A stretch of DNA of 64,000 bases from NCBI GenBank assembly GCA_000091205.1, contig AP006495.2. One strand, written 5' to 3'. The first letter of the stretch is position 1, and every line of letters starts with the position of its first letter. Both the position numbers and the translations under genes were made by a program. This document shows positions 10,375-59,060 of the stretch, piece by piece. The notes under the pieces are model-generated. The model saw only the letters and a list, made by a program, of their open reading frames with translations. It was not told where the DNA came from and did not search any database. The DNA is from Cyanidioschyzon merolae. Its lineage: Eukaryota.

Positions 10375-10870
10375 GCTGAGGTATGGACATGGAGGTCGGG
10401 GATCCTGCAGGGCTGGTGTCCCCGGATGTTTGCGAAAAAACGACAGAAAAAATCCTCTTCCCTCCGGCCGTCGACAGAAGACGAGCAAGTGGCGACGACG
10501 AAGAAGAACAGGGCAGATGGGCGAAAAATGGTGTTTGCCCCACGAGACGATGCCGCAACTGTATTGGAAAAGAGGGCAGGAGTTCGAGGACTCCTTGCAT
10601 GGGTGCGCTCCACCAGATGCAATACATGCAAGGAGTTCCTGAACCGGGCCTTCAGCGCCGCCATCAATATCAGATGATGTGTGGTGCTGAAGACGAGACC
10701 CGAGGGGCTGAAGCGATCCAACTTTGTAGTGCAGTCTCTGATGCTCGAAGCGTACAAAGAGAAGCTGGAATCGATAGTAGACGCCCTGTCGACAAAGACT
10801 GGGACGTGTCTCCGGGTGGGTATTCATTTACCCCACATGTTCGTTGGGCAGTTTTTGTTTCACTGATCAG
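10375..10870 (+). mobile_element. 5'-truncated 3' fragment of a TnpB/Fanzor-like element (copy A)
   Basis: ...RAGVRGLLAWVRST...KEFLNRAFSAAINIR* at 10426-10677. This is followed by a conserved tail (MVLKTRPEGLKRSNFVVQ...YKEKLESIV) shared with copies at 28.2, 41.7, 52.4 and 58.8 kb. A 1-nt indel shifts frame relative to copy C. Confidence 0.6.
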
Positions 10871-24035: not shown

Positions 24036-25784
24036 ATGAGTACAAGTCAAGTCATCGACTACATCATTCGCAAGCTCATTGAAGCCTACGAAAACGACGA
24101 GGCCGTTTCGCTGGATCGGTTAAAACTAGAAGCTGCAAAGCATTTCGGTGTTAATGGAGTACCAAAGCTCATGGACATAGTGGCTGCTGTGCCAGACGAA
24201 TACCGCGACGTACTCGTTCCACAGCTGCGCGTCAAGCCGGTACGCTCGTCGTCGGGAATCATCATCGTTGCCGTGATGTCGAAGCCGCACCGTTGCCCTC
24301 ACATCTACACGACCGGCAGCGTCTGTATTTACTGTCCAGGGGGTCCCGACTCGTCTTTCCCGTACTCTGCTCAGTCCTATACTGGGTTAGAGCCGACGAG
24401 TATGCGAGCGATTAGGGCGCGTTACGATCCCTACCTTCAGGTACGCTCTAGGATCGATCAGTTGCAATCGCTTGGTCACGCAGCTGACAAAGTGGAGTTT
24501 ATCATTCAAGGCGGTACGTTCATGAGTTTGCCTGCAGACTACCGGGATTGGTTTATTCGTAACCTTCACGACGCGCTCTCGGGACACGCGTCCATGAGTG
24601 TTGCCGAGGCGGTCCGCTACGGCGAGCAGAGCGCCAGATACAAGTGCATAGGGCTCACCATAGAGACTCGTCCAGACTTTTGCCAACGAACACATCTAGA
24701 CGCGATGCTGCAATACGGTTGCACCCGTCTAGAAATAGGGGTGCAGAGCGTCTACGAGGATATCGCGAGACTGACCAATCGGGGTCACACGGTTGAGGCC
24801 GTCATTCGCTGCTTCCAGCTCGCCAAGGATGCCGGTTACAAAGTTGTCGCCCACCTGATGCCAAACCTCCCGGATATGGATCGAGAGCGTGATGTCGAGT
24901 GCTTCCGGGAGTTCTTCGAGAACCCGGCCTTTCGCGCCGATGGTCTGAAAATATATCCGACGCTGATCCTGGCAAACACGGGCCTCTATGAGCTGTGGCG
25001 AGCGGGAAAATATCGCAGTATGCCACCTCCTGAGCTTGTTGATCACGTTGCGGAGCTCTTGTCTCTAGTACCACCATGGGTACGAGTCTACCGCGTCCAG
25101 CGTGATATTCCGATGCCGCTGGTCACCAGCGGTGTACAGTTTGGCAACCTTCGGGAACTGGTGTTAGCACGAATGCGCGACCTGGGACTACGTTGTCGAG
25201 ACGTGCGGACTCGTGAAGTTGGTATCCGGGAAATCCATGAAGCAGTTCGACCGCAATCTATTGAACTTGTTCGGCGCGATTATGTGGCGAATGGTAGCTG
25301 GGAGACCTTCTTGGCCTACGAAGATCCGGTACGGGATATTTTGGTAGCACTGCTTCGACTGCGGCGCCTCAGCAAAGAGACAACGCATCGGATGGAACTG
25401 CGTATTGAAGACACAGCTGCCGGGGATGATTCGAGCAATAGTGGCGTTGGGCAAGGCACCGGTTGCTCTGTGGTGCGCGAGCTCCACGTCTACGGGACAG
25501 TGGTGCCCGTTCACGAACGAGACCCGACTCGATTTCAGCATCGGGGCTTCGGTACGCTCCTCATGGAAGAAGCGGAGCGGATCGCTCGCGAAGAGCATCG
25601 CAGCTGCAAGCTCGCGGTTATCTCTGGCATTGGCACTCGAAACTATTATCGCAAACTGGGTTACACACTCGAAGGGCCCTATATGGTGAAGTACTTGGCA
25701 GCGGGTACTGCGAAGGTCTCGCCCAGCGGTATGTCCAGTTGTATGGGCGAACAGATACGCGCAGATATGGCTGTTTCCGTGTAG
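24036..25784 (+). CDS. ELP3: Elongator complex protein 3 (radical SAM plus GNAT acetyltransferase)
   Basis: Matches the human/yeast ELP3 sequence as I recall it across the whole length ([17 protein letters not shown], ...[13 protein letters not shown]..., ...[22 protein letters not shown]...). Uninterrupted 582-aa ORF. Confidence 0.95.
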
Positions 25785-28175: not shown

Positions 28176-28760
28176 ATGCAGGACTGTGTGAACACTGAGC
28201 AATACAAAAAAACGTTCAACGGCCATGGAGGGTATACAGACATCCTCCCTCGCAGACGCCGCCCAGCCTTCTTCGACTGGCTCCCCTGCTATCGGCTTCA
28301 GTTTCTCCTTGTACATTTCGTGTTGGAAAAGTTGCCCCACGAAGTTCGCACGTGTCAGCTTCCCCGGTCTCGTCTTCAGCACCACTCAACACCTGATATC
28401 CTTGACGGCGTTGAAGTCTCGGTTCACGAACTCCACGCGTTTTAGTCTCTCGTGGAGCTCATTCAGGCGAGGCTTCTTCGAACTCGCGCCCCCTGCGGCA
28501 TGTGCTGCTCTATCAGCTGTCCGAGGTTTTCCAACGCCGAACCGCTCCGTTGCCTTCTCTCAACATCAGCCTTCGGAAGTGTAAACCCCAGATCAGCCTG
28601 TGTTTTGCTCGTTCGGAACACAGCTATCGGTACCGCGACCAAACGCTGCGAGCTCTCCTTGTACGCGCGCGCCAAAAGAACCAATATTCTCCCTTTTTGG
28701 GGCAAGCAGTGCCCTGACCAGTTTCCCGCTAAAAGCTTTTGACCCTCATCCTCGTTTAAG
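28176..28760 (-). mobile_element. 5'-truncated and internally deleted TnpB/Fanzor-like fragment (copy B)
   Basis: Minus-strand reading gives ...SSQRLVAVPIAVFRTSKTQADLGF...RVEFVNRDFNAVKDIRC* and then VVLKTRPGKLTRANFVGQ...YKEKLKPI (ORFs 28463..28705 and 28161..28385). Confidence 0.55.
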
Positions 28761-29012
28761 GTGCTCAGCTATCTCAAGAAATCGACACTTGTACGCTTCT
28801 TCCTTTCGTACAAACACATACGGTGGCGGGGTGGGGGCCTGTCCGCCGATGCAGACCGCCTTCCACAGCTCGTCGGTATGAGTGTTTTGAACTTTCCTGT
28901 ACTCACGAACAGCTTCAAACTCCGCTCCTCGAAACGTGACTTTCTTCATCGCATCCCGGTACTTATTTAGTGCCGGTTGTTCAGTCGTAACTTGTTTCGA
29001 CGGCTCCGTCAT
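28746..29012 (-). CDS. Small hypothetical protein (88 aa)
   Basis: Clean ORF of lower GC with a plausible start and stop. No motif recognised. Confidence 0.3.
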   Translation of the reverse strand: MTEPSKQVTTEQPALNKYRDAMKKVTFRGAEFEAVREYRKVQNTHTDELWKAVCIGGQAPTPPPYVFVRKEEAYKCRFLEIAEHLKRG

Positions 29013-30027
29013 ACCCGACTATCGGTAGTTTCAAGCTCGCTAGACCTCCAACGGATGCATCTCATTCTGGCGCAGGTTGTCGCCAATACTATTTTTCCAT
29101 GGACAAAACGTTTACGTAGGTCAGTGTTCTCCGATTATGCGCATTTTCCTCTCTTTTTGTGGGTTTTTCAGTGCACGCTGAAGTATCCATCAAAACGCCC
29201 TACCTCCAAGTTGCATCACCCATACTTTTTCTCGGATATTCTGGTCGTTTCACACTTTGTATCGTGTGTGCCTAGTGCCTGCGGAAAGCGACAGCAATGG
29301 CGCCTATAGCGCCGGTGCGGTCGCTGTACGGAGACAATGGCGTTGTCGTAGTACAGAGGGCGTTGGCTCCAGGGTCGCCAATGCGATCTGCCAAATATGG
29401 AGGTGCGTTTATCGAGCGTGCTGTATGGAAAAAAAGGACAGAAACGAAACACGAACTAGCAACGAGATAACAACTTCGTTCCTGCCTCTCCGGTAAACCT
29501 TAAAATGGGGAAAAGGTTTACGTATTGGCGAAAGGTCCCGCGAGCCAGACGACTCTACCGGGCTTGCGCTCCGTGCTTCTCCCAGTAACGGATGGTGTTG
29601 TGAGATCTAAGCAGCTCGTCCGAAACGGAGTTTATTCTGAGACCCGGAGCGAGCATGCTGCATCTGGGCCTCGGCCTGGTTTCGGTAAACTCTTATGAAA
29701 TCGCTTCGCGCTGTCGCGAGCAGAAGGTCTGTCTGCGCAGCTTGCAGGCTCGCAGCATAGTTATGGATCCCGATTCCATATCGTATGAAACACACCTCGA
29801 GCGGACGCCGTCTGTGGTATGGCAATGCCGCCCTGTCTCCATGAGGCATCCGCTCCAGCTGCATAGGCGCAAAGGCGGACCCTCAAAGCAGGCACTCCGC
29901 GGCCGATAGAACGTACAAAAAGACGAGTACATCCCAGAACAGTTGATGGAACTTGGATGCAGGGTGCAGCAGCATGATCGACACTTTCCCGAAAGCCAAT
30001 ATCGGTTCCGCACTCTGGGATCCATGG

Positions 30028-31200
30028 TCAATGGAAACGATTTGTTATTGGAAGAAAATCCGTCCCACGCTTGGGCGCAGCGATGGACATGGTATCCTTC
30101 CTCCCTGGGTCCACGCTGACGACAACGTCGTTCACCTGTACTCCATACATCGCGGGGCCCGCCTCTTTCTTTTCATGCTTCGTCATAGGCGACAGCGAAG
30201 ACAGAATAGGACGAGCCACCCTCAAGCGCCAGCAGTGAACGCACATGGATATTCCGTATCGCGTTCGATCGTTCACGTGAATGCCTTTTTCTTTCTCGTG
30301 TCGAGCCGTTCCGAAACGAGGACATTCTTTCAATACGTTTCCCGCTTTTCGCCTGTGAACTCCGTGCTGCTTACATCGGACCCGGACTTGTCTCCTTCAT
30401 GATGCCGTAAAGGACTCTGGAGTTGATGGTCCCAAAGTGTGACTTGATGTTGGATGACGCAGCGACGTCAAAGCGCTTCTCCAGAAGCGCAACCTTCCGT
30501 TTCACCGAATCTGCATCATTATTTTCAACAATATCCATATTCGTCTTGCGTTCGAGCTCTCGGTTCGAAAACACGAAACAGAGCAGAATAAGGGGATAAC
30601 ATCTTTTTTCATATCCGATGCCTTTTCTGCATGGTTGACCAGCCCCAGAACCGCGCAATGCTCTTGAATAGCTGTATGGATCACAGAATCGTCATTCGTG
30701 ATACTGTGAGACGTATCGTCGTTGACGGAATCAGTTTTGCCTTCATCCCGACGATCGTTCATGATGCCATTGATACTGGCCCATATCTCTTCTTGGGAGA
30801 GAGGCCTGGTTAGAGCGCAAAGCCGGAGCGTATCATGAAGTGTTTGAGGTTCATGGTGAATACGGTTCTTCAGATTCGTGAGGTACTTCGTCGCCCCGTG
30901 TCCGCAAATACGCGAGTCAAGCCTGTATCGAGAACCGCTGGAGCGGTATTCGACGTAATCTTCGTGGAGGCGTGTACTCCCTCATTTCTCCTCAGCGTTT
31001 CCACTGTTCAAACCATAAGGTGGCCGATAAAGGTCGAGCTGACAAAGTCTCCCGGAATATCAACTGTCTGGCTGTGCTTGACGTCGTCCAGCATCTCCTT
31101 CACCAAATGCTGTAGTCATGAAGAAATCTTTTTCATACTCGTGCAGCAGGACGCGAAACGGTTTCTGATAGCCTCCCGCAAATTTTGCATGTAGGAACCC
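30028..31200 (-). pseudogene. Degenerate copy of the N-terminal (REC to RuvC-I) half of the TnpB/Fanzor-like gene (copy F)
   Basis: Minus-strand frames give VKVYLHGLIKGSYMQNLREAIRN (vs [23 protein letters not shown] in copy D). They also give NSVIHTAIQEHCAVLGLVN..., ...NRELERK...KSHFGTINSRVLYGI..., and ...VNDVVVSVDPGRKDTMSIAAPKRG (the RuvC-I-like VDPG). Frameshifts are present. Confidence 0.6.
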
Positions 31201-32532
31201 TTGATAAGCCCATGAAGATAGACTTTCACCACCCTCTCGCCGTATTGTTGTCTTTCGAATTGCTTTTGGTGTCTGGCCTCCTGCCTCAGCTTCTTCGTCG
31301 TCTCCTGTTACTCTGGGTTCGACACTGTTTTCCGTATTTTTACGGCAGCAGGCGACACCAGGTCTCTAGGATCCTCGACTTGAACGAACATACTTTTACA
31401 TTGGATTTTTATCTCTTCAAAATCAACGCACTTCTTTATGCCCATGGATGACGAACTTCCTGGAGGGTCTAGGACTTGACGAAGGAATACATCATGTGCT
31501 CCTGGTGTATTTCGGTTTGCTGAACGCTTCAGCGATTCACCCAGTGGTGCGATCATCATGTCTCACGATAGATAACGTTCCTTCGATGTGCTGAACCATG
31601 GAGAGTACGGAGGAATGAAGCGTAGCTCTATCCCGATAGAATCGGTAACAACTCCAACGCAAGAGAAAGGTGAAATGAAAGATACCCCAATGGAAGGAGC
31701 GCTGCCAGGCTTCAGGGGAAATTCTTCAATGATTCGACGAACTATGTGCTGTTGTATGAGCCTTCTCTATGCGCGAAACTGAGACCTTCAAACGAATCCA
31801 ATGCAGCTAGAACGAATAAGCGCAAGGTTCTCTCCAGTCTCAATTTTACATACAACGGGCACCCTGCTCCGCGAATACCCATATACGCTCCGATCGTTTC
31901 GTCCGAAGTGAGTCTCATCGACTGAAAAAGCAAAATAAAGTCCCTTTGTTTCGTACTGATCGGGACGTTAACGGAACCTGTCATTCTGATTTCGGTGGAA
32001 AATGGCCGTGCACGAGCTAGGATTCTATCTTGCGACTTTATCCCAGCGATTTCAGGATCTCACGAACAAGCTGTTGAGAAATCGAGACGCCCGTGGCGGC
32101 TTCAGTCGCCACCACTGCCTCCTGTAAGATGATAAACGTGTTGTTTTCTTCCATTGACAGCAAGCACGCTTTGAAAATACCGGTTTTTGACGCGGAGCGC
32201 ATCTACTTTCTTTCAGAGTTCTCTAGCCATCTGAGTACTGTGGTATGACCGACCTGAAGGAGGAATGCCGTCCTTCTTGCACTGTACAGTAAAGATATAT
32301 ACCCTAGAGACAATTTTCTACGGTCTATACGGTACATTGTATCATGATTTCGATCTCCTGCTGTACACCGCAGCGAGGATGGAACAAAACTGAGCTGGAA
32401 GACTGAAATTGGCTGTCTGACCTGGTTTGCACTGCATGACGCGGGTCGCGGGATACATTTTTCCTGTGCAACGTTCAGTCAAAACTACTTGAAAATCCAG
32501 CCGAGTTAGCTTGGCTTTGCGGACTGCAGGAG

Positions 32533-38759: not shown

Positions 38760-40083
38760 CTTCGGGTGGACTTTCGCTCTCGAGAAGCGTCATCTTCAGC
38801 GCGACATGTACCGCACTCCGGATACATCGTCAATGAAACAAAACATGTCCCACGCTCGTCTAGGGCAAATGAATATCCACTCGCAGACGCCTGCCAGTCT
38901 TTTTTGGTAGGCCTACTGCTATCGACTTCAGCTTCTAGTTGAATACTTCGAGCATGAGAGGCTGCCCGACAAATTTGGATCGCGTCAGCTCCTTGGTCTC
39001 GTATTCAGTAACCCATCTTTTGGTAGTGATGGCCGCGTTGAAGTCCCAGCGCACGTATTCCATGTATTAATTGCCTCTGGTTGACCTCAGTAGTGCAAGG
39101 ATTCCGAAAACTCGCGCCCCACTGTACCACTACAGACTCGTGGCCGTTGCGTCCAAGAGATACCTTTTCTGGTCTATGTCCTCGCTTGTTCGTCACTCAC
39201 TCTTCTCCGCTCGATTGTCAGCGAGAAGAGGGCTTTTGCAATTATTTGTCGAAGTCGGCAATGACAATACTCCTGGATCCTCGACTTCCATGTCCATACC
39301 TACCCAATGGATTTTCTATTTCTCCATATGAACGCACATCGAAAGCATCTACTGAGATCCGGGATAAATCAATCAATTATGCGTACGTGGGTGCAGAACA
39401 CAATGAAAGGTGAAAGCAGGAATGATGGAGAGTTAATGGCGAACGCATTGTTTGACTACGGGGTACGCAGGGCCAGCAGGATCACCGATACGTTCGCGTC
39501 CGCTGAAGCAGAAGCAGCAGGGTTCGAGCGCGCTGCAAACTACGGGGTGTTCCTGCTGGCCTCTGATCCGACGCGTAAGCGTTTCTCGACCGTATGATGC
39601 CTACAAGAAACTGTTCTTTACATGGATGCTATCTGCCGATAGATGCTGATTTGTATAGATCCACATCACCAACTTGGGCGCTCATTCTATGCAACTCGCT
39701 TCTTTCTTGCGTCCTGTACGCGTTCTGAGGCGATAGATTGCCAATCGCCACCGTTCCGTGCCCAGCGACAAGCGAGTCGAATGATGCCTACAAGCACCAT
39801 AGCACATTCGATATACGACGTCGAAACTGGATGCTTCGCGTGCCCGCGTTCGACACGTATATAGTACAGAGGCTGGCGCGTGCCTCGTGCACGATACCCT
39901 CAACATTACAGGTGCTGAATGTAGTTCGAGCGCATGCTTACGCAGCCTGAAGTGATGCACAAGAACACGCTGTCTCCAGTCGATGCTATCGCAGACTCGA
40001 CACTTGCTTCGGCTGCAGTGCAGGTTCTGCTTGTGCGTCTGTGTGCATGTCCGGTGAGATCTTCTTTGCCGCCTTCTTAGGTT

Positions 40084-41283
40084 TCATTCCAACTTGAACA
40101 GAATCTTTCCCTTTCGATTCGGGGCAAACTGTGCCCGAAAAGCATCCTCATACTGTTCGAGTGTATATTCTTGCTCAACTTGCGGTCGCATATCACCTTT
40201 GCGAATCATTTCAAACGTTTCCTCGAAAATCGTCGGCTTCTGGTTCTTCAACCAAGTTGTAAGCGAGAAACCGCGGACAACGATGCCCTTAAAGATCAGA
40301 TCACTGTTCATGACACACGTCGGTTTGCCGCTCTGCAGCCCGTATGCCATGAAAAGGCCGCCCGGGGAGAGCGCTGCCAGCGCAGCCGAGCCCATCTCGC
40401 CGCCAACAGCGTCAACGACGGCAGCGAGCCCGCGTCCATTCGTTATCGCGTTGAGACGCTCGGCGAGGTTCGGCTCCTCGCCAAAAACGATCACCTCGTC
40501 TGCCCCGAGCTGTTTCAGTTCCGCAACAGATGCTTTCGATCGCACAAAGTTCACCGTGCACAAGCCCCGCTTTTTCGCCAGCTGGATGAACATACGACCG
40601 AGAGTCGAGTTCGCCGCTGTCTGTCCGATCCACGGGTTGCCGTGAACCGGCGCCTCCGCTTCGATCTGCTCCAACATGCCGACCACGGTCAGCGGATTCA
40701 CTATCAATTGAGCGGCCTCTTTATCACCGATATCCTGTGGTACTTTGATACAGAGGTTTTCGTCCACCACGAGGTACTGTTGCCAGCAGCCCGAGCGATC
40801 CGCAAGTGTTGGAATCACACGCGTCCCGACAGGAAGCGAGGTCGCTGGACCTTGCGCCACAACTTCTCCGACACCCTCGAGGCCGCCAACAAACCCAGGA
40901 CGACGTTCGCGCACTGCGGCTACCCCAGGGTACACGCCTTGGACGACAAACACGTCGGCAGGATGGAGGCATGCATACCGCATCTTCACGAGCACCTGAC
41001 CCGGACCAGGCTTCGGGACAGAAGCAGTGGTGTTCAACCTAAGTGCTCCCTTCAGCGGATCGCCAAAACTTACAATTTCCAGAGCTTTCTGCGTTGACGG
41101 TATATGTGTTGCCATAGAGTCTGCAAATCGGTTGCGTCTTCCAGCAACGACACCGCCAGGCCTGTGTCTGGAATCAATTTTGGGGCAGGGAGTGCGCACA
41201 TCAGGCTGGCCGCGTCCACCCGCCACACCTGGACCCGTGCCGCGGTATGCGAATGAATCTGGACTGTGGGAGGCAGCGTGCAT
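40084..41283 (-). CDS. Trans-2-enoyl-CoA reductase (MECR/Etr1-type MDR-family oxidoreductase), probably mitochondrial
   Basis: MRYACLHPADVFVVQGVYPG resembles Etr1 (NPADINQIQGVYP). The MDR-type zinc-ADH fold runs throughout. The true start is more likely the internal Met at about 41115 (MATHIPSTQKALEI...), because the upstream part of the ORF overlaps the Fanzor-like fragment C on the other strand. Confidence 0.7.
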   Translation of the reverse strand: MHAASHSPDSFAYRGTGPGVAGGRGQPDVRTPCPKIDSRHRPGGVVAGRRNRFADSMATHIPSTQKALEIVSFGDPLKGALRLNTTASVPKPGPGQVLVKMRYACLHPADVFVVQGVYPGVAAVRERRPGFVGGLEGVGEVVAQGPATSLPVGTRVIPTLADRSGCWQQYLVVDENLCIKVPQDIGDKEAAQLIVNPLTVVGMLEQIEAEAPVHGNPWIGQTAANSTLGRMFIQLAKKRGLCTVNFVRSKASVAELKQLGADEVIVFGEEPNLAERLNAITNGRGLAAVVDAVGGEMGSAALAALSPGGLFMAYGLQSGKPTCVMNSDLIFKGIVVRGFSLTTWLKNQKPTIFEETFEMIRKGDMRPQVEQEYTLEQYEDAFRAQFAPNRKGKILFKLE

Positions 41284-41925
41284 TCGTCAACTTTTTCAAT
41301 CAGTTGAGCGCCTTGAAGGAGGATCAAAGTCAGAGGCTCGTAGTAGCGTACGGAGCAGGGCGCTGGAAGACCCAAAAAGGGACGAGGCCAGCTCCAACGA
41401 CAAGAATGTATGAGGCGTGCACACGGCGTTTCGTTACGATACCGATAGATGAGTTCCGAATATCCTATACACACCATGAACTGGGATGCACACTTCAGAG
41501 GGTCGAGATGGAAACGTGCCAACGGAGCCCTGAGGATATAAAAAAGCACGGACCGCTGACGGAAGAGCAAATGGAAAGGAGGGCGAAAGTTCGTGCATTG
41601 CTTGCACTAGTGAGTACAACCAATGATAGTAAGAAACGTATGGAGTTCGTGAATCGTGACTTTAATCCTGCTATCAATATAAGGAAATGTGTGGTGCTGG
41701 AGACGAGACCTCCAGAGTAGACAAGAGAGAATTTTACTGGACAACCTCTCAAGGTTGAATCATATGAGAAAAAGCTGGAAGCAGTAGTGGGTGACCCGTC
41801 GAACAAGGCCGCGAGGCGTCTGCACATCAGTTGGTGACTTCTTGTCTAGGGCGCGGTTTCTCGCCACTACTGCACACCGCCGGCGACGTCGTTCGACTGC
41901 GAGAGGCGTTCGGCGGTGTACGAGG
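41150..41925 (+). mobile_element. 5'-truncated TnpB/Fanzor-like fragment (copy C), carrying the RuvC-II-like segment, the zinc-finger region, RuvC-III and the 3' tail
   Basis: ...RQRAFVNFFNQLSALKEDQSQRLVVAYGAGRW...TRMYEACTRRFVTIPIDEFRISYTHHELGCTLQRVEMETCQRSPEDI...RRAKVRALLALVSTT...KRMEFVNRDFNPAINIRKCVVLETRPPE*. The tail is conserved with copy D up to about 41900. Confidence 0.65.
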
Positions 41926-44900
41926 GGTGTGTGCTTTAAACGCCAAGCTTGTTTCGCTGCTTTTTTTTTGAAAACTCGACCATCGCTGGGACCCAGCACT
42001 GGCAAGGATCAATGCCGTGTGTCTGCGAACGCTCTGTCCTCTAAAAGTTCGTGGTTTCGTCTGGAAATCCAAACGAGCTTCCGTCACGGGCGGGGAACGT
42101 GTCACTCGCTTCGAAGAGGTGAACGCCGTGAACCAGAGGACGGAAAACGGTGCAAGCTTCCTATGGGAGGCGCTTTCGCTGCATACGCCATGACTCAGGC
42201 GCTCATTCTTCCCGGGAGCTCTGCTTTTATCAAAATACCACCGTACGCGAACAACCGCACGACCAGTACGTACTCGAATGGAGCAAGCTGCGTTGCCAGT
42301 CGCCGCCACTGTCGGTTTTTGGGAGCCGGCTCAGGCCGGAGCCGCGCCTTGACTGCGTTTCTGGTGAAGCAGCAGTGCTGTCGCTGCGTCGACAGTTTGC
42401 GGCGCGCACAGACAGCTAAGCGCTCACCTGGTGTCGCTGCGATCCGTCTCGCGACCGAGTCCCCGGAACAGGACCCTGTTCTTGACTGGCTCCGCAAAGA
42501 GCTCAACGACGAGCAGTTTGCAGCCGCGACGGCGCCCGTTGACGCTCCAGTTTTGGTGATGGCTGGCCCCGGATCAGGCAAGACGCGGGTTCTCACTTAC
42601 CGAATGGTGTACCTCATCATCAAAGAACTCTTCAGGGCAAGGCACTTATTGGCGGTTACGTTCACGAACAAGGCTGCTGATGAGATGCGAGCACGCGTGA
42701 TCGACCTACTAAAGTCGCGACAAGGCACCGAAGTGGAATCCTCGCACAGCGTTCCCACTGTTGGTACGATTCATTCGGCCTGTTCGCGCATCTTGCATCG
42801 GTTTGGCGCAGTCATGGGCATTAGCTCCAAGTTTAACATCTATTCCGAGTCGGATGCTAAGCGGCTGCTGCACAGGATCCTCGAAGAAAATGGCGAAACG
42901 ATGATTGACCCGAAGAAGATTGCGTTGTTCGCCGCGCTTCTCTCCGAGATGAAGCAGGAACAATTTTGCGCGGAGTTTGGTTACGAGCCGTCGCCCTCTA
43001 GGTCGCCGGCCTATGATGCTCGTGGCATCACTGCATACATGGTGGAACGCGCCAAAACCCTCCTTCCGGTGTACCAGTCGGAGCTGCGACGGCTTGGGGC
43101 ACTCGACTTTGATGATTTGATCCTGGAGGCGGGACGCCTGCTTCGGAATCACCCGGCCATTCGTCTGGAGCTCCAGAAGCAATGGCAATACATCATGGTA
43201 GATGAGACTCAGGACACCAGCCAAGCTCAGTATCATGTAATTCGATTACTGGCTGAAAGAAAACGTGAAACAGAGAAGTATTTCCCGTTGTTTCTTGTGG
43301 GTGATCCCGACCAAAGTATCTATGGATGGCGCGGGGCGGACATGCACGCTGTTCGGCGTTTTCGGGATTCGCTACCGGAAACCCGTGTCTACCTATTAGA
43401 GAACAATTACCGCTCGACGAAAGCAATTGGAGATCTAGCACAATACGTCATACAACAGGATCGTGAACGGATACATCCAGAGAAACGCATGCGTACGCAG
43501 CTAGAGGGCGAACATCCCGTTCGCTTGGTCTTTTGTAGGAACAGCAAGTCGGAAGCTGAATTCGTGGTCAAGCAAATTCGAGAACTCGTCGCACGCCACA
43601 AGCTCTCTGGTCGAGATATCGCCATCATGTACCGAACAAACGTTCAAAGCCGTACGCTCGAGGAAGCCTGCATACATGCCGGTGTGCCGTACGTCTTGGT
43701 TGGCGGTCTGCCCTTCTACGAGCGGCGCGAGGTCGCAGACATGCTGGCCTGTTTGAAGCTGCTCCTCCACGAGGGCGATACAGCAAGCTTTGAACGGGTA
43801 TTGAGCTTTGCGGTCTCCGGCATTGGCAAACGAACGACCGCCGCATTGTACGAATGGGCGAAACACCTGAACTGCACACCGATCGCGGCACTTCGGGCGC
43901 TCAGCAATGTCGATGCGGATACACCAATCGTTTCCAAAGCGATACCGAGCGTACCGCGCTCGCTGCCCGTGCATGAAACCCCAGCGGTGGACGAAAACGC
44001 CTCCAACGGAACCCGGGGTGCAGCTGAACTCGAGACTACCCCGACTTTGACCGATGAACAGGTGGCCATGCTGGGTGTCACTTCGCGGAAACGCAAAATC
44101 TTGCTCAAGTTTTTGGAGATGTATGAGCGGTGGAAGAGATTACTGCGAACACCTGTGGCCGAGATGAGCCGCAGGTATTATGTGCTTCCACTCATGATTA
44201 AGACAATTTTCGCAGACACGCAATACGAGGAATACGTCCGCAAGCAAGCGCTCCACGGACCCGCTGTCAATGAGGAGACCAGCGCTCTTCGCGTCCAGGA
44301 GCGTCTAGAGAACGTCGTTGAACTCGCACGAGCCGCCTCCACAGCCGAGGAGCTCTGCCTGAAGAGGGGTGCTCAAACGGCCGGCGACGTTCTCGTGACC
44401 TTTCTGCATGAGGTTGCACTTGTGCATGGCGCTAACCGCGACGAGAACACCCCGAAAGATGCATTCGGCTGTGTGAATCTCATGACGCTGCACGCGAGCA
44501 AAGGTCTTGAATTCGAAGCAGTTTTCATCGTTGGTATGACGGAAAGTCTTCTGCCACACAAGCTGTGTCGTACCCGAGAGTCACAGATCGCGGAGGAAAG
44601 GCGGCTGGCATATGTCGGCTTGACTCGCGCCAAGCGCCACCTGACAATCACCTGGTACCCAAATGGCTCCGAATGGCTCTCCCGGTTCCTCCTGGATGCA
44701 CCTGACGAACTCGTCAGTCGACACTGCGCCCGGGATCTGATGAAAGGTCGCCTGGACCCCATTCCACGTGAAGAATATACGCTGCGGTGCAAGCAAGCAC
44801 ACGCGGGCAGCAAGGAGCCGGTACGCATCGGTGACATAGACGTACTGGGAGAAGTGAAGGCCAGGAGCAGGGCGGCGGAATCGAAACGAGCACGTGTCCA

Positions 44901-45066
44901 GGCAAACGCGGACTCCAAACTAGCCGCTGGGGTTTTTGTAAGGCATTCAAAATATGGCAAAGGTATTGTTGTCAAGAAACTAGACGGTACACCGCTCGTT
45001 GTCGTGCGATTCTTCGAGCAGCGCGGGACAAAGGCTGTTCCTGGAAACTTCTTGGAGCGGCTCTGA
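41791..45066 (+). CDS. UvrD/PcrA-type superfamily-1 DNA helicase (bacterial architecture) with an N-terminal extension of about 200 aa
   Basis: Walker A is VLVMAGPGSGKTRVL. LAVTFTNKAADEMRARV and the helicase motifs follow, ending ...LTRAKRHLTIT.... The C-terminal HSKYGKGIVVKK...VVVRFFEQRGTK resembles the UvrD/Rep C-terminal domain. The annotated start lies next to a TE fragment and is uncertain. Confidence 0.75.
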   Translation: MTRRTRPRGVCTSVGDFLSRARFLATTAHRRRRRSTARGVRRCTRGVCFKRQACFAAFFLKTRPSLGPSTGKDQCRVSANALSSKSSWFRLEIQTSFRHGRGTCHSLRRGERREPEDGKRCKLPMGGAFAAYAMTQALILPGSSAFIKIPPYANNRTTSTYSNGASCVASRRHCRFLGAGSGRSRALTAFLVKQQCCRCVDSLRRAQTAKRSPGVAAIRLATESPEQDPVLDWLRKELNDEQFAAATAPVDAPVLVMAGPGSGKTRVLTYRMVYLIIKELFRARHLLAVTFTNKAADEMRARVIDLLKSRQGTEVESSHSVPTVGTIHSACSRILHRFGAVMGISSKFNIYSESDAKRLLHRILEENGETMIDPKKIALFAALLSEMKQEQFCAEFGYEPSPSRSPAYDARGITAYMVERAKTLLPVYQSELRRLGALDFDDLILEAGRLLRNHPAIRLELQKQWQYIMVDETQDTSQAQYHVIRLLAERKRETEKYFPLFLVGDPDQSIYGWRGADMHAVRRFRDSLPETRVYLLENNYRSTKAIGDLAQYVIQQDRERIHPEKRMRTQLEGEHPVRLVFCRNSKSEAEFVVKQIRELVARHKLSGRDIAIMYRTNVQSRTLEEACIHAGVPYVLVGGLPFYERREVADMLACLKLLLHEGDTASFERVLSFAVSGIGKRTTAALYEWAKHLNCTPIAALRALSNVDADTPIVSKAIPSVPRSLPVHETPAVDENASNGTRGAAELETTPTLTDEQVAMLGVTSRKRKILLKFLEMYERWKRLLRTPVAEMSRRYYVLPLMIKTIFADTQYEEYVRKQALHGPAVNEETSALRVQERLENVVELARAASTAEELCLKRGAQTAGDVLVTFLHEVALVHGANRDENTPKDAFGCVNLMTLHASKGLEFEAVFIVGMTESLLPHKLCRTRESQIAEERRLAYVGLTRAKRHLTITWYPNGSEWLSRFLLDAPDELVSRHCARDLMKGRLDPIPREEYTLRCKQAHAGSKEPVRIGDIDVLGEVKARSRAAESKRARVQANADSKLAAGVFVRHSKYGKGIVVKKLDGTPLVVVRFFEQRGTKAVPGNFLERL

Positions 45067-51764: not shown

Positions 51765-52405
51765 CGAGTGTCACTGACGCATCGTGCGCATGGTGCAAAC
51801 GTGGTGTAAACGCTTTGCGACGGTCACCGCTGGTCATTCTAAGCTCCAGGCGACACACAGAGGGGATTTGGATCCGCAGGCAGCAATGGTTTCGATGAAG
51901 CACAACGAGTCTGCTGCGCAGCAGCAGCGCGCGTTCACCTCAGCCTAGCACCCATCAGACCAGTTCAGCGCCACCCATCTGCCCGAACCGGGACACTCGC
52001 TTTTAAAGGCCTTTTCCGCTGCTCGAGGTACCACTCACCAAGGCGACGCCCAAGTACCGTACCCAGTCCAAGCATGAGTCCTGTAACTAAAGGGTACAGA
52101 ACGACTTCTTTCGCCCTTTCGAGCGCGCGCTGCGCTCGTGAACGATCGCCCGGTGCCATGGCCCTAGGTTCAGTGAGCAACAAGCCGCTCCGGCGAAAGC
52201 GCTTTCGATTAGTAGTCTAGGCACTTTTGTCGTGCGCACGTGCCGTCTTACAAGAGCGCCCCGAAGCAGCGACCTAAACGCAGTGCGTTGGCAAACGGAA
52301 CGCGATCGAGCCTGCTTTCCGCCGCTCGCTCGATTTCAGAGACCACGGACTGACCACGAATAGGCTGCCACGCAGATACCTGTGCGTGGACGTCTTTACA
52401 AGAAC

Positions 52406-53327
52406 TCAGCTCGATGATGGGGCAAACTTCGCACGAACCAGCAAGAAACGCCGTTCTAAAGTAGAACGTCGTCGGCGGTGTACAGTAGTAGCGACCGGTG
52501 CGCCTTGGACACCAAGTCGCCTACTGACGTGCAGACGCTTCCTAGGCTTTTTCGACCGGCCGCCTACTACTGCTTCCAATTGTGTCTCATATAGTAAAAC
52601 CTTAAGAGGTTGTCCAACAAAATTCTCGCGTGTCATCTCTGGAGGTCTCGTCTCCAACACCGCACATCTCCTTATATTGATGGCGGTAATAAAATCTCGG
52701 TTCACAAAATCCATCCGTTTCGTGCCGTTGGGAGTTGTACTTACTAATGCAAGCAGTCCACGAACTTTCGCTCTCCTTTCCATTTGCTCTTCCGTCAGCT
52801 GTCTATACTTTGCTATATCCTCAGGGCTCCTCTGGCACTTTTCCATCTCGACTCTCTGAAGTGTTAACCCCTGTTCATGGTGTGTGTGCTATGTTCGAAA
52901 CTCAACTACAGGTATCGTAACGAAACGCCTTGCACACTCCTTGTACATTCTTGTCGTTGGAGCTGGTGTAGTGCCTTTCTTGGGCACCCATCGTCCTGCT
53001 CCGTACGCTACGACGAGCCTCTGACTTTCCTCCTCCTTCAGGGCGCTCAACTCATTCAAAAAATTCGCGAACGCCCGCTGCCTCCCACCGTATAGATTCA
53101 TTCGCAAACGAGCCCACGGGGGTTGGTATACTCCTCCCATAGCGCATCCCGGTGCGCCATATGCGAACTTCCATGAATTTCCGGACAGCTCCAAAGTCCG
53201 CTCCTCGGCTCGTCACCTTACTCAAAGCTTCCGGGCGATCCTTCATTCCTGCATTCCGTTTCTCGATTTTCTTCCTCGCATTCATGATTCCCGATTCTCG
53301 ATAGTATCTCGCTCTCGAGATCCTCAA
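52406..53327 (-). pseudogene. Frameshifted C-terminal half of the Fanzor/TnpB-like protein (RuvC-II-like, zinc-finger, RuvC-III and C-terminal tail)
   Basis: Three different minus-strand frames (ORFs 53052..53327, 52889..53194, 52406..52846) are needed to read it. Together they are homologous to copy C. Confidence 0.65.
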
Positions 53328-54703
53328 AAAAGACGCATGTCTTTCTGACGCAAGTTACCATCAGCACCATCTTCCGTACGCTTCGGTGCTACGATGGTTA
53401 TGATATTCGTATTCCCAGGGTCCGCGCCAACGACAAGGTCGTTATCCTGCACTTTCTGCGCGGCAGGATCCTCCTCCTTCTCATCTTTATGCATCGCCGC
53501 GCCAACGACAAAGTCGTTAGCTTGCACCTCCTGCGTCGCAGCATCCTCCTCTTTGTTTTCTTCATGCTTCGCCGCGCCAACGACAAGGTCGTTATCCTGC
53601 GCTTTCTGTGTCGCGGGACCCGCCTCTTTGTTTTCTTCATGCTTCGTGACGGGCGCAGCCGATGGAGGGACTGGACGATCTTTCTTCAACCTCCGATAGT
53701 GCACACACATGGCTACTCCATCGGGTTCGATCAACCCAGTGAATACCTTTTGTTTGCTCACTTTCAGACGTTTGAAATCGAAGATGCTCATCCAGTACGT
53801 CTCCCGGTTTCCGCCGGTGAAGTCCTCCCTGCTAACATCGAACTCCGGACAGATATCCCTCGTGATGCCGTAAAGGATTCTGGAGTTGATAGTCACAAAA
53901 TGTGACTTGATCTTGCACATTGGAACCACGTTGAAGTGCTTCCCCATTAGGACAGCCTTCCGTCTCTCCCACTCTTCCTTTGACTCTTCACTCAGCTTCA
54001 TCTCCGCTTTGCGTTCGAGCTCTCGGTCCAGAAACACAAAATAGCGCAGAACGAGGCGATCGTATCTTTCCCTATCTTTTTTCAACGCTGATATCTTGTC
54101 TGTTGGATTCGCCAGCCCCAGTACCGTACGATGCTCTTCGATAACCGCACGGATGACGGAATTCTCATTCGTGCTCTGGTTTGACTCCTTGTTGTCAACG
54201 AATTCGACCTCATTTCCATAGTTTCGATCGTTCGTGATGCCATTGATAATCGCCCATATTCCTTTGCGAGACAGGCCCCGGTAGAGTGCAAACACGGCGC
54301 GTATCATGAAACGTTCGAGGTTCATTCTGAAATGGTTCTTCAGATTCGTCAGGTACTTCATCGCCCCATATGTGTAGATATCCGCGTCACCCCTGTATTG
54401 GGTACCCTCGAAGAGGAATTCCGCGAAGTTTTCGTGGAGGACTTTCACCCGCTCATTTTCCCTCCGCGCTTCCTCTGTACCAAGCATCAGCTGACGAATA
54501 AAGGTCTTATCGAAAAACTCGTCCGGAATCTCGACCGTTTCCATGTTCGTCACGTAGAGGTACATCTCCTTCACCAAATGCATCAGTCCTGAAGATGCCT
54601 TTATCCTACTCATGGGGTACAACTCGAGAAGGTTTTTGATGGCCTCTCGCAACTTTTCCTTGTACGGATCCTTGATATATTTAAGAACACAGACTTTCAC
54701 CAC
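53324..54703 (-). CDS. Intact 459-aa ORF encoding the N-terminal (REC-like to RuvC-I) portion of the Fanzor/TnpB-like protein
   Basis: Uninterrupted ORF of lower GC. The C-terminal [15 protein letters not shown] matches the TnpB/Fanzor RuvC-I (hGhDxG) pattern. It contains a 3 x 25-aa tandem repeat just upstream of that motif. Confidence 0.65.
53422..53650. repeat. Tandem repeat, 3 x 75 bp, inside the Fanzor-like ORF (encodes [25 protein letters not shown] x 3)
   Basis: The ccgcgccaacgacaa(g/a)gtcgtta.. units start at 53422, 53497 and 53572. Confidence 0.85.
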
Positions 54704-55199
54704 TATCTCGTTGTACAGTTGTCTTTCTTGCCGCCTTCGACGTAGAACCTCCCCCTTTTTGAATCTTCATCACTTCCTGTTCCTCTTTGCTCCGCCTTGT
54801 TTATCTTTTTTTCCGGCAGCGGGTGATATCGGCCCTCCGGGATCCTCCACTTCCATTTCCATGACTTTCCTTTTAATTTTTTGAAAACGAACGCTCTTTG
54901 AACGCTTCTGTTATATACTTCGAAAAAACACTTGAATATACTCAATTGAGGGTCGGAATAGGATGGAACAGAAAACCTATACTTTGCTACGACCTCAACG
55001 CGAATACAACTTTTACAGTAGAATAGCACGCCAATGATCAGGATCACTGTTCCCCTCAAGAGCGACCAGAGCGTCGTGTCTCGTGCCCGCCGGATCTGCC
55101 AGGTGCGCGTGCACGCGCAGCGGCTGACCTGCGCCCCGCCGCCGATCAGGAGATTGCTTCTGGATATGTCTATCTCAAAGCGTGATAACCTGTTGCTGA

Positions 55200-57086
55200 A
55201 TGAACGCTCACCACAATGACTGGACTCCCGATAAAGTATTGGATACAGTGAGGGAATATGTGGACGCTGGAGCACTGTCGGAGTGTGCGGCACTGGACTT
55301 GCTGGAGCGTTTGCCGTTACCGCTGCTGGGCTGGACACTGGAGGAGTACGCGGTGCGGGCGTCGCTCGAGGCTTCAGACAGCGACGCGGTACCATCCGAC
55401 AACATATTTGATTCCGTCCGGGTATTAACGAAAACAATGGAGAAACTGGTCAAGCTCTCTGCAACAAGTGCCCGAGTGCGTCACCTCGTACCTATAGAGC
55501 AGGTGCTCCAGCTCATCCAGCTCGGTCTGAGCAGCCGGTACCCGCTGGTACGCACAGCTGCGCTTCGTCTGCTTTGTCTCCTTCTTGAACGTAATGACTT
55601 GCCTGAAGCGTTTTGTCAGCAAGTTGCAGACACCATTATCGAACGTTTTGAAAGTACGAACGAGCTTCGTCCGGAGATAGAGGCCGCACAAGCGCCAGGT
55701 CCAGAAGTGAACGCTAGCAGCACAACTGCACAGCACGCCAGCGATATCCTGTCACTGGTGCTGCTGAGCTTCCGTGATGATCCATCCACCGAAGCTGCGG
55801 GACTTTGTGAAAAAATCCTGAAGAACCTGGTACAGCTGAAGCCGTTCCGCGGCGCAGTTGTGCTCTTCAGCGAAGCACGAGGCGCGCAAATCCTCGTACA
55901 GGAGATGCTCTCGGGTGCAGCGGGTGCGGTTGCGCATATCCGAGCCTTGAACTTGCTGCTTGAGATCTGCGACTACTCGTCTGTTGCAGAGATTGCCGCA
56001 CGTCGGCTGTTGCCAACCGTGCTTGTAGCCAAAATCGCAGCTCCTGTTCGTTTGGATGAGGACATGCTACTCCGCTTGAACTTGCTGGATGTGCTTGGGG
56101 CTTTTATGCAACGCAGTGCAATAGCAGCCGAGTTGCTCGACCAAATTTCGGTATTCGATGTGCTGCTACGCCAACACCTTGCCTATTTGTTGGCGCCAGA
56201 CGAGCCTGCCTCGAGCGACTTGGCGGAACGCTGGTTTATTTGGATGTGTGGGATTCTGAGGTTCGTGCGCACCAGTGCCGGGTCCAGCCGTTGCGCCTTC
56301 CACGCTTGGATGAACGCCAATCTCGTAGAGATTCTTGGGCGCTTTCTCTTGCTTCACGTGGTAGATGGCGAGACTGAGACAGCACACTGGTCCGTACAAC
56401 TTGATCAAGTTCGTCGGACGACATTGCTGGTGCATCTGATCTCCGCGGTTGGCGCTCTGGGGCTCTGTGAACGCGGCATGGACGTGCTGCTTGCGGACGT
56501 TGACACCTTGAAACTAACGCTTCGTTTCATTCAAACGGCGAGCGTGTGCGATATTCGAGTGGCCTCCTTGCGTGCTTTGAGTGTGTTCCTGGCAGGTCTC
56601 GACGAGCCGCTTTCATCAGCAGCCGTCTCAGGGTACGGAGCCGCCGAATCCGACCTCGAATTTCGGCAGCAAAGGGTGCTGCATCTGTTCACTGATGCGA
56701 TCAGGGATGCGGATCCCGTCAAGGCGTTCACGAATGCACTGCCCATTGTCCTGGACTGTGCACGGCATCCTTCGGAAGAAGAGCGGCTCGCTGCTGCGGC
56801 GGTATTCGCTGCGCTAGGTCTGTCGAGAATCGGAGTTGTCGCGTTGGCTAGTATGGCGGGCTTTGTGGAATGGCTCTGCGACCCGGCGGACGCTTCTCTC
56901 GAGGTCCTGGAAGCTAAGATGCGCGTTGCACGACGCCTAGTTGAGCTGCACGCCAGTGACGGAGAAGTCGCATTCGGTGCGCTGAAATGGTCGCGTATTG
57001 TCGCCGTGGTCTCGAATCGAAGCGATCCTCGAGCTGTGCGTCAGCAGCGCGTGCCTGCTGTCAACATTGCCACTCTGAATCGTTAG
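55200..57086 (+). CDS. Hypothetical ARM/HEAT-like helical repeat protein (628 aa)
   Basis: Uninterrupted ORF with host-like GC and Leu/Ala-rich helical repeats. No specific family recognised. Confidence 0.45.
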   Translation: MNAHHNDWTPDKVLDTVREYVDAGALSECAALDLLERLPLPLLGWTLEEYAVRASLEASDSDAVPSDNIFDSVRVLTKTMEKLVKLSATSARVRHLVPIEQVLQLIQLGLSSRYPLVRTAALRLLCLLLERNDLPEAFCQQVADTIIERFESTNELRPEIEAAQAPGPEVNASSTTAQHASDILSLVLLSFRDDPSTEAAGLCEKILKNLVQLKPFRGAVVLFSEARGAQILVQEMLSGAAGAVAHIRALNLLLEICDYSSVAEIAARRLLPTVLVAKIAAPVRLDEDMLLRLNLLDVLGAFMQRSAIAAELLDQISVFDVLLRQHLAYLLAPDEPASSDLAERWFIWMCGILRFVRTSAGSSRCAFHAWMNANLVEILGRFLLLHVVDGETETAHWSVQLDQVRRTTLLVHLISAVGALGLCERGMDVLLADVDTLKLTLRFIQTASVCDIRVASLRALSVFLAGLDEPLSSAAVSGYGAAESDLEFRQQRVLHLFTDAIRDADPVKAFTNALPIVLDCARHPSEEERLAAAAVFAALGLSRIGVVALASMAGFVEWLCDPADASLEVLEAKMRVARRLVELHASDGEVAFGALKWSRIVAVVSNRSDPRAVRQQRVPAVNIATLNR

Positions 57087-58165: not shown

Positions 58166-58544
58166 AGAACGTCGACATCATCATCTGTTCTAGCTGCGGT
58201 GGATTCATTTGGCTGCCTCAGTTCCGCTGAAGAGAACACTCATGCAGCAGCGCCCTCTTTTTGTCGAGTCATCGAAGACTTGTCCCAAACGTCTGGTGAA
58301 GTCCTTCTATTGGACATAGTGGTATTTAGCCATTCTGCTTCAGTTCGAGCATTTGCCAATTCTATCGACGGGTAGAGCTGGTTTCATTCCTTCTTCTCAC
58401 CTGTGTTTCATTCCCATAGAAGGAGAGTTTTGCGTCCTGAATCGTCACGACCGCTCCACCGGGCGAATAGATGAAGCGTTCAGCACATGGTGACCAACCG
58501 GGGCACATTTGGTCTTTATTCCGCATGTGCTGCTCGATGCGGGA

Positions 58545-59060
58545 AGGTCGTCATCTCAGGCTATAAACAAGTGCGTTCATTTTCGAAAAATCTAAGGGAC
58601 GAGCTGGAATATACACCCTAGGATGTTGAGTTGGAGCGAGGCCAGCGGAGCGTTTCGTCGACGGATCAGCACGAAGAGCTGACAGAGCACCCAATGGCAC
58701 AGCGTGCACGAGTTCGTGGTCTCCTATCATTGGTGAGATCAACCAGCGGCAACAAACGCATGGAGTCCATGAACCGAGACCTCAACGCTGGTATCAATAT
58801 CAGGAGATGCTTGTGCTGAATGCGAGGCACGCAGCGCTGCGGCAAGCTAACTTTGTTGGGCAGCCTCACAGCGTCGGAGTGTATATGGAGAAACTGAAAC
58901 CGATACCAGAACCCTGTAAGAAAAGGCTGAGAGACGTCTGCGGGTGGATATTCATTTACACGATATTGTGGCGAAACGGGTTTGCTGCACTGACGTAACG
59001 TTGTTCGCTTCGGCATTCGCGCTGTTATCTGCTCCCGAGCAAACCGCGAAAAGCAGGCAA
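58545..59060 (+). mobile_element. 5'-truncated TnpB/Fanzor-like fragment (copy E)
   Basis: ...VELERGQRSVSSTDQHEELTEHPMAQRARVRGLLSLVRSTSGNKRMESMNRDLNAGINIRRCLC* is followed by the conserved tail (LVLNARHAALRQANFVGQPHSVGVYMEKLKPIPEP). Confidence 0.6.

Follow-up and report, generated by a model that had tools for sequence, protein, structure and literature searches.

Fanzor1 elements of the red alga Cyanidioschyzon merolae were catalogued, under the names CMe-1 and CMe-1A, in the 2013 paper that named Fanzor (Bao and Jurka, 2013; PMC3627910). That work describes about 150 copies of CMe-1A, which are approximately 80% identical to a consensus (sequences are given in its supplements), notes that the first ~645 bp of this consensus are 95% identical to TE-N2_CMe, and reports neither a transposase nor inverted repeats or target-site duplications. 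Fanzor1 structures have been solved for SpuFz1 (8gkh, 9ceu), Parasitella PpFz1 (9cf0) and Guillardia GtFz1 (9cer), proteins for which activity and a guide RNA have been shown. Their catalytic D/E/D residues are numbered D383/E541/D606 in SpuFz1 (PMC10432273), and the Glu occupies the rearranged DE[FY][RK]TS position in place of the canonical RuvC-II position, a pattern described previously (PMC10530073).

Within the window analyzed here, a 64,000-nucleotide stretch of contig AP006495.2, a 2.68-kb block on the minus strand (~52447-55123) is very probably one of these ~150 decayed CMe-1A copies. A global alignment with positions 646-3169 of the published consensus (2518 aligned nt) gives 85.5% nucleotide identity, a value at the level of other family members (~80%), and after frame repair the encoded protein shares 74% identity with the published CMe-1. 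The original prediction that the family may be undescribed is therefore superseded. The window copy shares with CMe-1/CMe-1A its host, the start of the protein (MEKEVEDPGG), the motifs and the 3' end, as well as the lack of inverted terminal repeats and of a visible target-site duplication, but it differs from CMe-1A in lacking consensus positions 1 to ~645, in carrying two extra 75-bp repeat units, and in having acquired five frameshifts and two stops. The host is established by the ELP3 gene at 24036-25784, the product of which is identical in 582 of 582 residues to C. merolae 10D BAM80969.1 (100%). The first named match, from Cyanidiococcus, reached 88% and had raised the possibility of a novel Cyanidiales host, which the full identity with strain 10D rejects. 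The remaining open reading frames of the window are uninterrupted eukaryotic housekeeping genes, and the proposed intron-free, protist-like locus is borne out by a host that is an intron-poor protist. An exact look-up of the neighboring 628-residue open reading frame returned no record, probably owing to a difference in the called start.

The ends of the element were set by homology breaks against 71 related loci, together with the published consensus. These breaks fall at ~55108-55110, followed by ~13 more conserved nucleotides, and at ~52446-52447, so that the block proposed originally is real while its limits move from 52386 and 55040 to ~52447 and ~55123. The lower GC content reported for the block is also evident (0.465-0.526 over 52-55 kb versus ~0.55-0.57 on both sides), with the minimum of the element in an AT-rich 5' non-coding leader (54863..55104, minus strand) that matches CMe-1A 658-905, a stretch lying 5' of the ATG in the consensus, and that may have acted as a promoter or 5' untranslated region. 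Immediately outside this leader, the alignment of 5' ends reveals a terminal palindrome, GCGCGT-gc-ACGCGC (55105..55118); the corresponding palindrome in other copies reads GCGCTC-ggt-GAGCGC, the arms in the window copy differing from it in a compensated way. Five or more further copies had been predicted, and six related fragments are indeed present in the window. The largest (28252-31381, minus strand) is a second, older CMe-1A copy, 65-77% identical to the consensus and split by TE-N2_CMe-like sequence inserted at 29388-30048, and another (41245-41893, plus strand) is the 3'-terminal fragment of a further copy, matching CMe-1A 2506-3153 with 87.7% identity; the others lie at 10565-10811, 58463-58905, 38883-39119 and 15730-16125. 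Fragments from the 3' terminus are overrepresented in the window, perhaps only because the best-conserved part of the element is the easiest to detect.

The longest surviving open reading frame, of 459 residues (53324..54703, minus strand), is present as first described, with a RuvC-I-like GADPGNTN motif near its end and a terminus reading MRLF-stop. It corresponds approximately to CMe-1 residues ~54-445, that is, to the WED/REC part of the protein up to the RuvC-I motif. Residue 1 of CMe-1 maps by tblastn to an ATG at 54862-54860, which opens a Lys/Arg-rich N-terminal segment (54704..54862, from tblastn and codon projection) that is disrupted in the window copy: frameshifts of -1 at ~54805 and +1 at ~54760, together with in-frame stops, cut the ATG off from the 459-residue frame, and the N-terminal segment MEMEVEDPGGPISPAAGKK stands in place of the consensus MEKEVEDPGGPVSPAAGKKRK. 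Directly preceding the RuvC-I motif is an array of three 75-bp tandem repeat units of 25 residues each (53422-53646), of which the consensus has one; the equivalent region is disordered (pLDDT <50) in an AlphaFold2 (AF2) model of the relative P0001. Beyond the RuvC-I Asp codon (53420..53422, in GADPG), which an HMM alignment to 8gkh pairs with SpuFz1 D383, three frameshifting indels (+2 at ~53331, +2 at ~53162 and -1 at ~53122; 53110..53335) break the RuvC domain before the Glu motif, as seen in the three-frame translation and the consensus alignment, and a TAG follows.

The downstream TnpB hallmarks noted in the original prediction are likewise found on the same strand, as FVTIPVVEFRT followed by the TAG (52891-52889) and as FVNRDFITAINIRRC. 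In the E-F-R-T-stop stretch (52889..52903), the codon of the alternative RuvC-II Glu (52903-52901) is kept, the preceding consensus Asp has become Val, and the premature TAG occupies what is a Ser codon in the consensus. Similarly, in the RuvC-III motif VNRDFITAINI (52682..52705) the Asp codon (52696-52694) aligns with SpuFz1 D606, and the NAA of the consensus is replaced by ITA. All three catalytic codons (53422, 52903 and 52696) are thus retained, while neighboring residues have changed. The two frameshifts counted originally understate the damage: comparison with the consensus gives five frameshifts and two premature stops. No intact coding sequence remains in this copy, and because of these lesions, the altered residues beside the catalytic Glu and Asp, and the extra repeats, the window copy cannot make the protein and is a molecular fossil.

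The near full length of this copy, its open 459-residue frame, its three surviving catalytic codons and the existence of a ~95%-identical orthologous copy (L013) in hot-spring metagenomes might be taken to mean that it is still functional or was recently active, with the frame breaks put down to sequencing error or overcome through editing or programmed frameshifting, or with the copy having moved recently. We consider this very improbable. Five sequencing errors in 2.7 kb would be implausible, as the C. merolae 10D genome is a finished assembly. Furthermore, the five frameshifts are independent of one another and are accompanied by two stops relative to the consensus, from which the copy diverges by 14.5% of its nucleotides, and nearly all of the 71 related metagenome loci are broken, at differing places. 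Copies of the family differ from each other by ~20%, as also published (PMC3627910), and stand at ~80% identity to their consensus, observations that, with the coding damage, run counter to the recently active lineage that had been suggested. No fully intact copy was found among the related loci, the best being that of locus L001, which encodes P0001. This 752-residue protein was considered as the product of an intact, active gene and rejected because, at its locus, a frameshift separates the called frame from the ATG and an early stop is present.

The N-terminal frame is long for so diverged a copy, and its ratio dN/dS against the consensus is below 1 (0.47). Domestication of the 459-residue product, which would have WED/REC domains but no nuclease and might serve in RNA binding or regulation, would fit both features, but the frame has no ATG of its own, starting with a GTG right after in-frame stops, and no NCBI or UniRef protein corresponding to it was found among the homologues. 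A further point is the comparison of dN/dS between the two halves of the protein (0.37 overall, 0.23 for the broken RuvC half and 0.47 for the N-terminal half), which is the opposite of that expected from selection on the N-terminal half alone. The overall and RuvC values indicate that selection was still acting on the protein during much of its divergence, and the low dN/dS of the N-terminal half is explained by divergence among once-active lineages; a domesticated gene is accordingly highly unlikely, and we retain the interpretation of a decayed CMe-1A copy.

The assignment of this copy to the Fanzor/TnpB-type RuvC nucleases, central to the original prediction, is upheld by sequence profiles, by fold and by the alignment of the D/E/D residues. 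A 56-member family profile searched against PDB sequences matches three solved Fanzor1 proteins, PpFz1 (9cf0, E=8e-24), SpuFz1 (8gkh, 1.9e-16) and GtFz1 (9cer, 9.5e-11), with homology spanning both the REC/WED and the RuvC domains despite a sequence identity of only 12-15%. The structural comparison employed the AF2 model of P0001 rather than one of the broken window copy (pLDDT 82.4, pTM 0.80); this model has the RuvC fold with the Fanzor1 domain arrangement and finds SpuFz as its best match in the PDB (E=4.4e-17, TM 0.60/0.72, the higher value normalized to SpuFz), the top seven Foldseek hits all being Fanzor1 chains (E 4e-17 to 8e-14), with Cas12 proteins next. Residues D484, G623, E656 and D725 (P0001 numbering) do not vary among the 56 sequences, the acidic D/E/D set aligning with SpuFz1 D383/E541/D606 in the HMM alignment to 8gkh. 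In fact, the invariant columns in both alignments (A1 and the 56-member A2) comprise the Asp, a Gly at the canonical RuvC-II position, the Glu and RD.NA.N, so that the canonical RuvC-II Glu is replaced by Gly and the Glu lies in the rearranged position (DEFRTS), as in the solved Fanzor1 proteins.

The Pfam search that had been proposed as a check gave a different picture, with no match above threshold for any of the four open reading frame pieces, for the protein after frame repair or for its close relatives. The only signal from it was Cas12f1-like_TNB, below threshold in 10 of the 56 members (best E=5.6e-05), with individually scored proteins at 12-17 bits against a cut-off of 26.3 bits; the precomputed Pfam match was a weak DUF8286 only. 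A profile of seven sequences likewise found no relative among the PDB sequences, and homology surfaced only once an exhaustive representative search had added diverse members. These negative results are what would be expected if the block were unrelated to Fanzor and its motifs a chance resemblance in another repeat, but given the 56-member profile with its aligned catalytic residues, the independent fold match to SpuFz chains and the direct match to the published CMe-1 Fanzor1, the probability of such an origin is negligible. Revealing the Fanzor homology takes a structure or a profile of the family, and Pfam fails on its own.

Compared with SpuFz1, the Fanzor1 of the window differs at the zinc finger. 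The zinc-finger start proposed originally was correctly placed, but the CCCC cysteines are missing in this clade: CPRC ... C..NPNC in SpuFz1 stands against YTHHEL ... LLALV in CMe-1, both CMe-1 and the window copy have H/L/L opposite SpuFz1 C942/C945/C980 (chain numbering), and neither A1 nor A2 contains a conserved Cys column at this site. Since the zinc finger of SpuFz1 and TnpB is not conserved, even the ancestral activity is uncertain. The 30-nt inverted repeats of SpuFz1 elements (PMC10432273) are also absent from the window element. The interpretation offered originally therefore holds for the Fanzor identity, the protist host and the further copies, and not for the undescribed family, the recent activity or the zinc finger.

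The TnpB proteins of IS200/IS605 and IS607 (e.g. ISDra2 TnpB) resemble the window element in having a RuvC nuclease with a NUC/TNB region, in the overlap of the 3' end of the gene with a conserved, structured element end, and in their lack of inverted repeats and target duplications, with hairpin-forming sequences at both ends. Unlike them, the window element has no TnpA gene, does not reach the Pfam TnpB-type models, and encodes a protein in which the Glu is rearranged, the N-terminus is rich in Lys and Arg, and the N-terminal REC region is much larger. At its 3' end, a conserved, foldable region overlaps the end of the reading frame (52447..52580, minus strand), and in 35 independent copies the terminal ~146 nt are conserved to the exact end of the element. 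The consensus of this region folds with z=-2.68. RNAalifold on the 35 independent ends recovered three pairs only and no consensus structure, a hand-drawn 34-pair structure was 83.0% paired in these copies, equal to the shuffled mean and hence without covariation signal, and Rfam gave no match for the region. The 3' region is a candidate omega-RNA scaffold, a candidate set of right-end recognition hairpins, or both, and a guide RNA from it is plausible; we infer the guide-RNA part by analogy, and do not claim an omega RNA as proven.

The 5' end is equally well delimited. The match to the consensus begins at ~646-658, the TE-N2_CMe-like segment (about 635-645 bp) being missing, and the DNA upstream of the window copy is host flank, in which a gene begins at 55200; the related loci L001 and L045 lack this segment as well. 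In related algae, at least four unrelated repeat families, one of them TE-N2_CMe, abut the ~2.5-kb Fanzor unit on its upstream side, with the junction always at the identical nucleotide. A repeat search over 52300-55250 found no terminal inverted repeats, the flanks of independent copies contained no target-site duplication and no defensible TAM-like motif on the 5' side, and neither a transposase nor a second gene was found within the element. Tentatively, and with low probability, this unit, from palindrome to structured 3' end, may move as a discrete module of a still-unclassified transposon type; the same-nucleotide junctions could reflect site-specific insertion beside other repeats, directed by hairpins or by RNA. 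As part of this tentative reading, and given the missing CCCC zinc finger, the consensus might allow reconstruction of a Fanzor1 from a thermo-acidophile in which the NUC domain is unusual.

In its ancestral state, the element encoded a single protein, the 734-residue Fanzor1 CMe-1, a eukaryotic TnpB homologue that combines WED/REC domains with a split RuvC nuclease domain in which the catalytic Glu is rearranged as is typical of Fanzors. By analogy with Fanzor1 and TnpB, the active element may have transcribed an omega RNA from its structured 3' ~150 nt into the flanking DNA, and the resulting RNA-protein complex would have cut matching DNA, helping the element to persist or spread. The locus illustrates that a Fanzor is recognizable from its motifs alone, read without tools, where Pfam alone would wrongly have dismissed it, and the sharp 5' junction and structured 3' end provide handles on how the element moves.

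The element is a copy of CMe-1A, the sole Fanzor1 family catalogued for C. merolae in the paper that named the Fanzors (Bao & Jurka 2013, PMC3627910), and the copy in the window is a pseudogene. The published DNA consensus is 3169 bp long, stands for about 150 copies that are each about 80% identical to it, and encodes a single-exon protein of 734 aa, CMe-1; it has no inverted repeats, and its target-site duplication and transposon class were left undetermined (PMC3627910). When compared with the consensus sequences from the supplements of that paper, the window element shows 85.5% identity to CMe-1A positions 646-3169 (2518 nt aligned) and its repaired protein 74% identity to CMe-1, so that the suggestion in the original prediction of an undescribed family finds no support.

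Sequence profile and fold each establish the homology to Fanzor1. Pfam searches with the ORF pieces, the repaired 734-aa protein and close relatives gave no match save sub-threshold ones to Cas12f1-like_TNB, and this proposed route to confirmation therefore fails; likewise, a seven-sequence profile found no solved relative among PDB sequences. The repaired protein has 40 metagenome homologues (28-71% identity, the best being P0001, of 752 aa), and an exhaustive profile search yielded 2508 clusters at E<=1e-3 and 394 at E<=1e-30, with lengths mostly of 600-700 aa. A profile of 56 diverse family members (alignment A2) matches three solved Fanzor1 proteins in the PDB, those of Parasitella parasitica (9cf0, E=8e-24), Spizellomyces punctatus (SpuFz1, 8gkh, E=1.9e-16) and Guillardia theta (9cer, E=9.5e-11). 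Modelled with AlphaFold2 from alignment A2, P0001 gives a confident structure (pLDDT 82.4, pTM 0.80) with disorder in the repeat region alone; the best seven PDB matches to this model are all Fanzor1 chains, followed by Cas12 proteins (SpuFz: E=4.4e-17, TM 0.60/0.72). The predicted Fanzor identity is thus correct, and the proposed structural comparison, made with this relative, bears it out.

The invariant columns in all 56 A2 sequences are exactly the Asp of DPG, the Glu of DEFRT, the Asp of NRD and a Gly at the canonical RuvC-II position (AYG). Counted along the profile alignment with the 8gkh chain, the three acidic residues correspond to D383, E541 and D606 of SpuFz1, which are reported to coordinate the two magnesium ions (Saito et al., PMC10432273); such a ‘rearranged glutamate' arrangement is known for Fanzors (Jiang et al., PMC10530073). 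Whereas SpuFz1 and TnpB have a CCCC zinc finger in common, the CMe-1 clade has none in the family and 8gkh alignments, where YTHHEL...LLALV stands in its place. After DEFRTS this Fanzor1 clade is without the first CXXC (alignments A1 and A2), and the CMe-1 lineage additionally is without the later cysteines aligned to SpuFz1 C980/C985. Judged from these alignments, the zinc finger is one defining Fanzor feature that the clade lacks.

The longest ORF of the window copy (459 aa; 53324..54703, minus strand), the downstream motifs, the low GC content (0.465-0.526 at 52-55 kb versus about 0.55-0.57 in both flanks) and the presence of further copies are all as predicted, as shown by ORF listing, translation, GC content and similarity searches; no second gene was found in the element by ORF listing. 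In three-frame translation, the original frame returns 3' of the ORF after passage through both other frames and reads ...RLVVAYGAGRW...ECARRFVTIPVVEFRT up to a TAG at 52891-52889, past which it continues as ...KVRGLLALVSTTPNGTKRMDFVNRDFITAINIRRC. Projection onto the consensus reading frame places the original ATG at 54862 (minus strand) and reveals five frameshifting indels, at ~54805 (-1), ~54760 (+1), ~53331 (+2), ~53162 (+2) and ~53122 (-1), and two premature stops, the TAA at 54803 and the TAG at 52891 (Ser in the consensus). Next to the catalytic residues, VDEF of the consensus has become VVEF and NAAINI has become ITAINI. Nearly all copies in 71 related hot-spring metagenome loci are also broken, at differing sites, and even the best of them, the P0001 locus, has a poly-A-run frameshift between ATG and called ORF as well as an early stop; a recently active lineage is therefore not supported.

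The window copy carries two additional units of a 75-bp repeat relative to the consensus (three units, 53422-53646). The encoded 25-aa repeat, present once in the consensus, three times in the window element and at least four times in P0001 (residues 388-470, predicted disordered), adjoins the RuvC-I strand on its N-terminal side, and the lead-in of the catalytic strand, ...DNDLVVGA, recurs in every unit. One metagenome locus (L014, Ga0080006_1142693), compared with window 57769-52446, is 95.6% identical across host flank and element as far as these repeats (53441), past which identity is only 81% and the 3' flank differs. Either two copies recombined at the repeat or the metagenome sequence is a chimera of assembly. 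Another, L013, is a plain ~95% orthologue of window 54827-52447.

An element was correctly predicted here, but its ends and the extent of its damage, put at two frameshifts, were not. Homology to other copies ends abruptly at ~52446-52447 (3') and ~55108-55110 (5'). Past the 5' break, about 13 further conserved bases are palindromic with the bases that open the unit (55105-55118). Most copies have GCGCTC-ggt-GAGCGC as this palindrome, whereas the window copy has GCGCGT-gc-ACGCGC, a compensated change. A repeat search found no terminal inverted repeats at the element, nor was a target duplication found.

The CMe-1A consensus itself is composite, its first ~640 bp being a separate repeat, TE-N2_CMe, that is missing from the window copy, with the Fanzor unit directly after. 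Among metagenome relatives, the unit is joined at one same nucleotide, immediately 5' of ATCGCGCTCGGTGAGCGC and with the GTTGAAGGGAAAC motif about 60 nt downstream, to upstream repeats of at least four distinct families: class A (L008, L030, L039, L043, L061), class B (L019, L023, L026, L056), class C, which is TE-N2 (L002, L041, L049, L053), and class D (L007, L050). Class A upstream sequences align over 585-597 of 600 compared nucleotides at 75-87% identity in four of six loci (L008, L030, L039, L061), and one upstream family reaches 600 nt or more. Downstream flanks are unrelated in the four comparable locus pairs, and the upstream flanks of the window copy, L001 (the P0001 locus) and L045 are unique.

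The last ~146 nt of the element overlap the ORF end, are conserved up to the terminus and could pair over a long range as a stem (CAGUAGUGG/CCACUACUG), besides forming inner hairpins and a terminal hairpin of 10 bp. Folding of the consensus gives -56.8 kcal/mol versus -47.0 +/- 3.7 for shuffles (z=-2.68). Fanzor and TnpB guide RNAs are encoded at this same location (PMC10432273, PMC10530073), and a candidate omega RNA would comprise the 3' scaffold plus ~20 nt of flank, would be bound by the Fanzor1 protein and would direct the complex to cut DNA matching the guide. Across 35 independent copies, the 34 proposed pairs are paired in 83.0% of cases, exactly the shuffled expectation, with no excess of compensatory changes, so covariation lends the omega RNA no support; a signal of this kind would, however, be lost as dead copies decay neutrally. 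RNAalifold gave no consensus structure for the 3' end and Rfam no match, and it is as likely that the hairpins serve a mobilising enzyme as recognition sites in the DNA.

Similarity searches located six further related pieces in the window. An older CMe-1A copy (28252-31381, minus strand; 65-77% identical to the consensus) is interrupted by a TE-N2_CMe-like insertion (29388-30048), which lies between consensus positions 2241 and 2245 and is adjoined by an inverted partial TE-N2 piece (29199-29373); TE-N2 therefore moved independently into a Fanzor copy. The others are 3'/RuvC-III-end fragments, at 10565-10811, 41245-41893 and 58463-58905 (plus strand) and 15730-16125 and 38883-39119 (minus strand), which may reflect 5' truncation or merely easier detection of the best-conserved part. 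Eukaryotic housekeeping genes with uninterrupted reading frames account for the other long ORFs (ELP3, eRF1, AsnRS, Sgf11, SWIB, M16 peptidase and a UvrD-type helicase). ELP3 (24036-25784) is identical to Elp3p of C. merolae strain 10D (BAM80969.1, 582/582), and 88% and 81% identical to its Cyanidiococcus and Cyanidium counterparts (Cyanidiophyceae), respectively. The window thus belongs to C. merolae or to a source that ELP3 does not distinguish from it. The mechanically listed helicase ORF (41791-45066, plus strand, 1091 aa) begins with a GTG inside the 41245-41893 fragment, so the true gene start probably lies downstream of 41791.

Between window copy and consensus, dN/dS comes to 0.37 for the whole coding sequence and to 0.23 for its RuvC half, so that a good part of the divergence predates the loss of purifying selection on the protein. 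The CMe-1A Fanzor1, already known since its publication in 2013, is thus a family that was long functional prior to the death of these copies.
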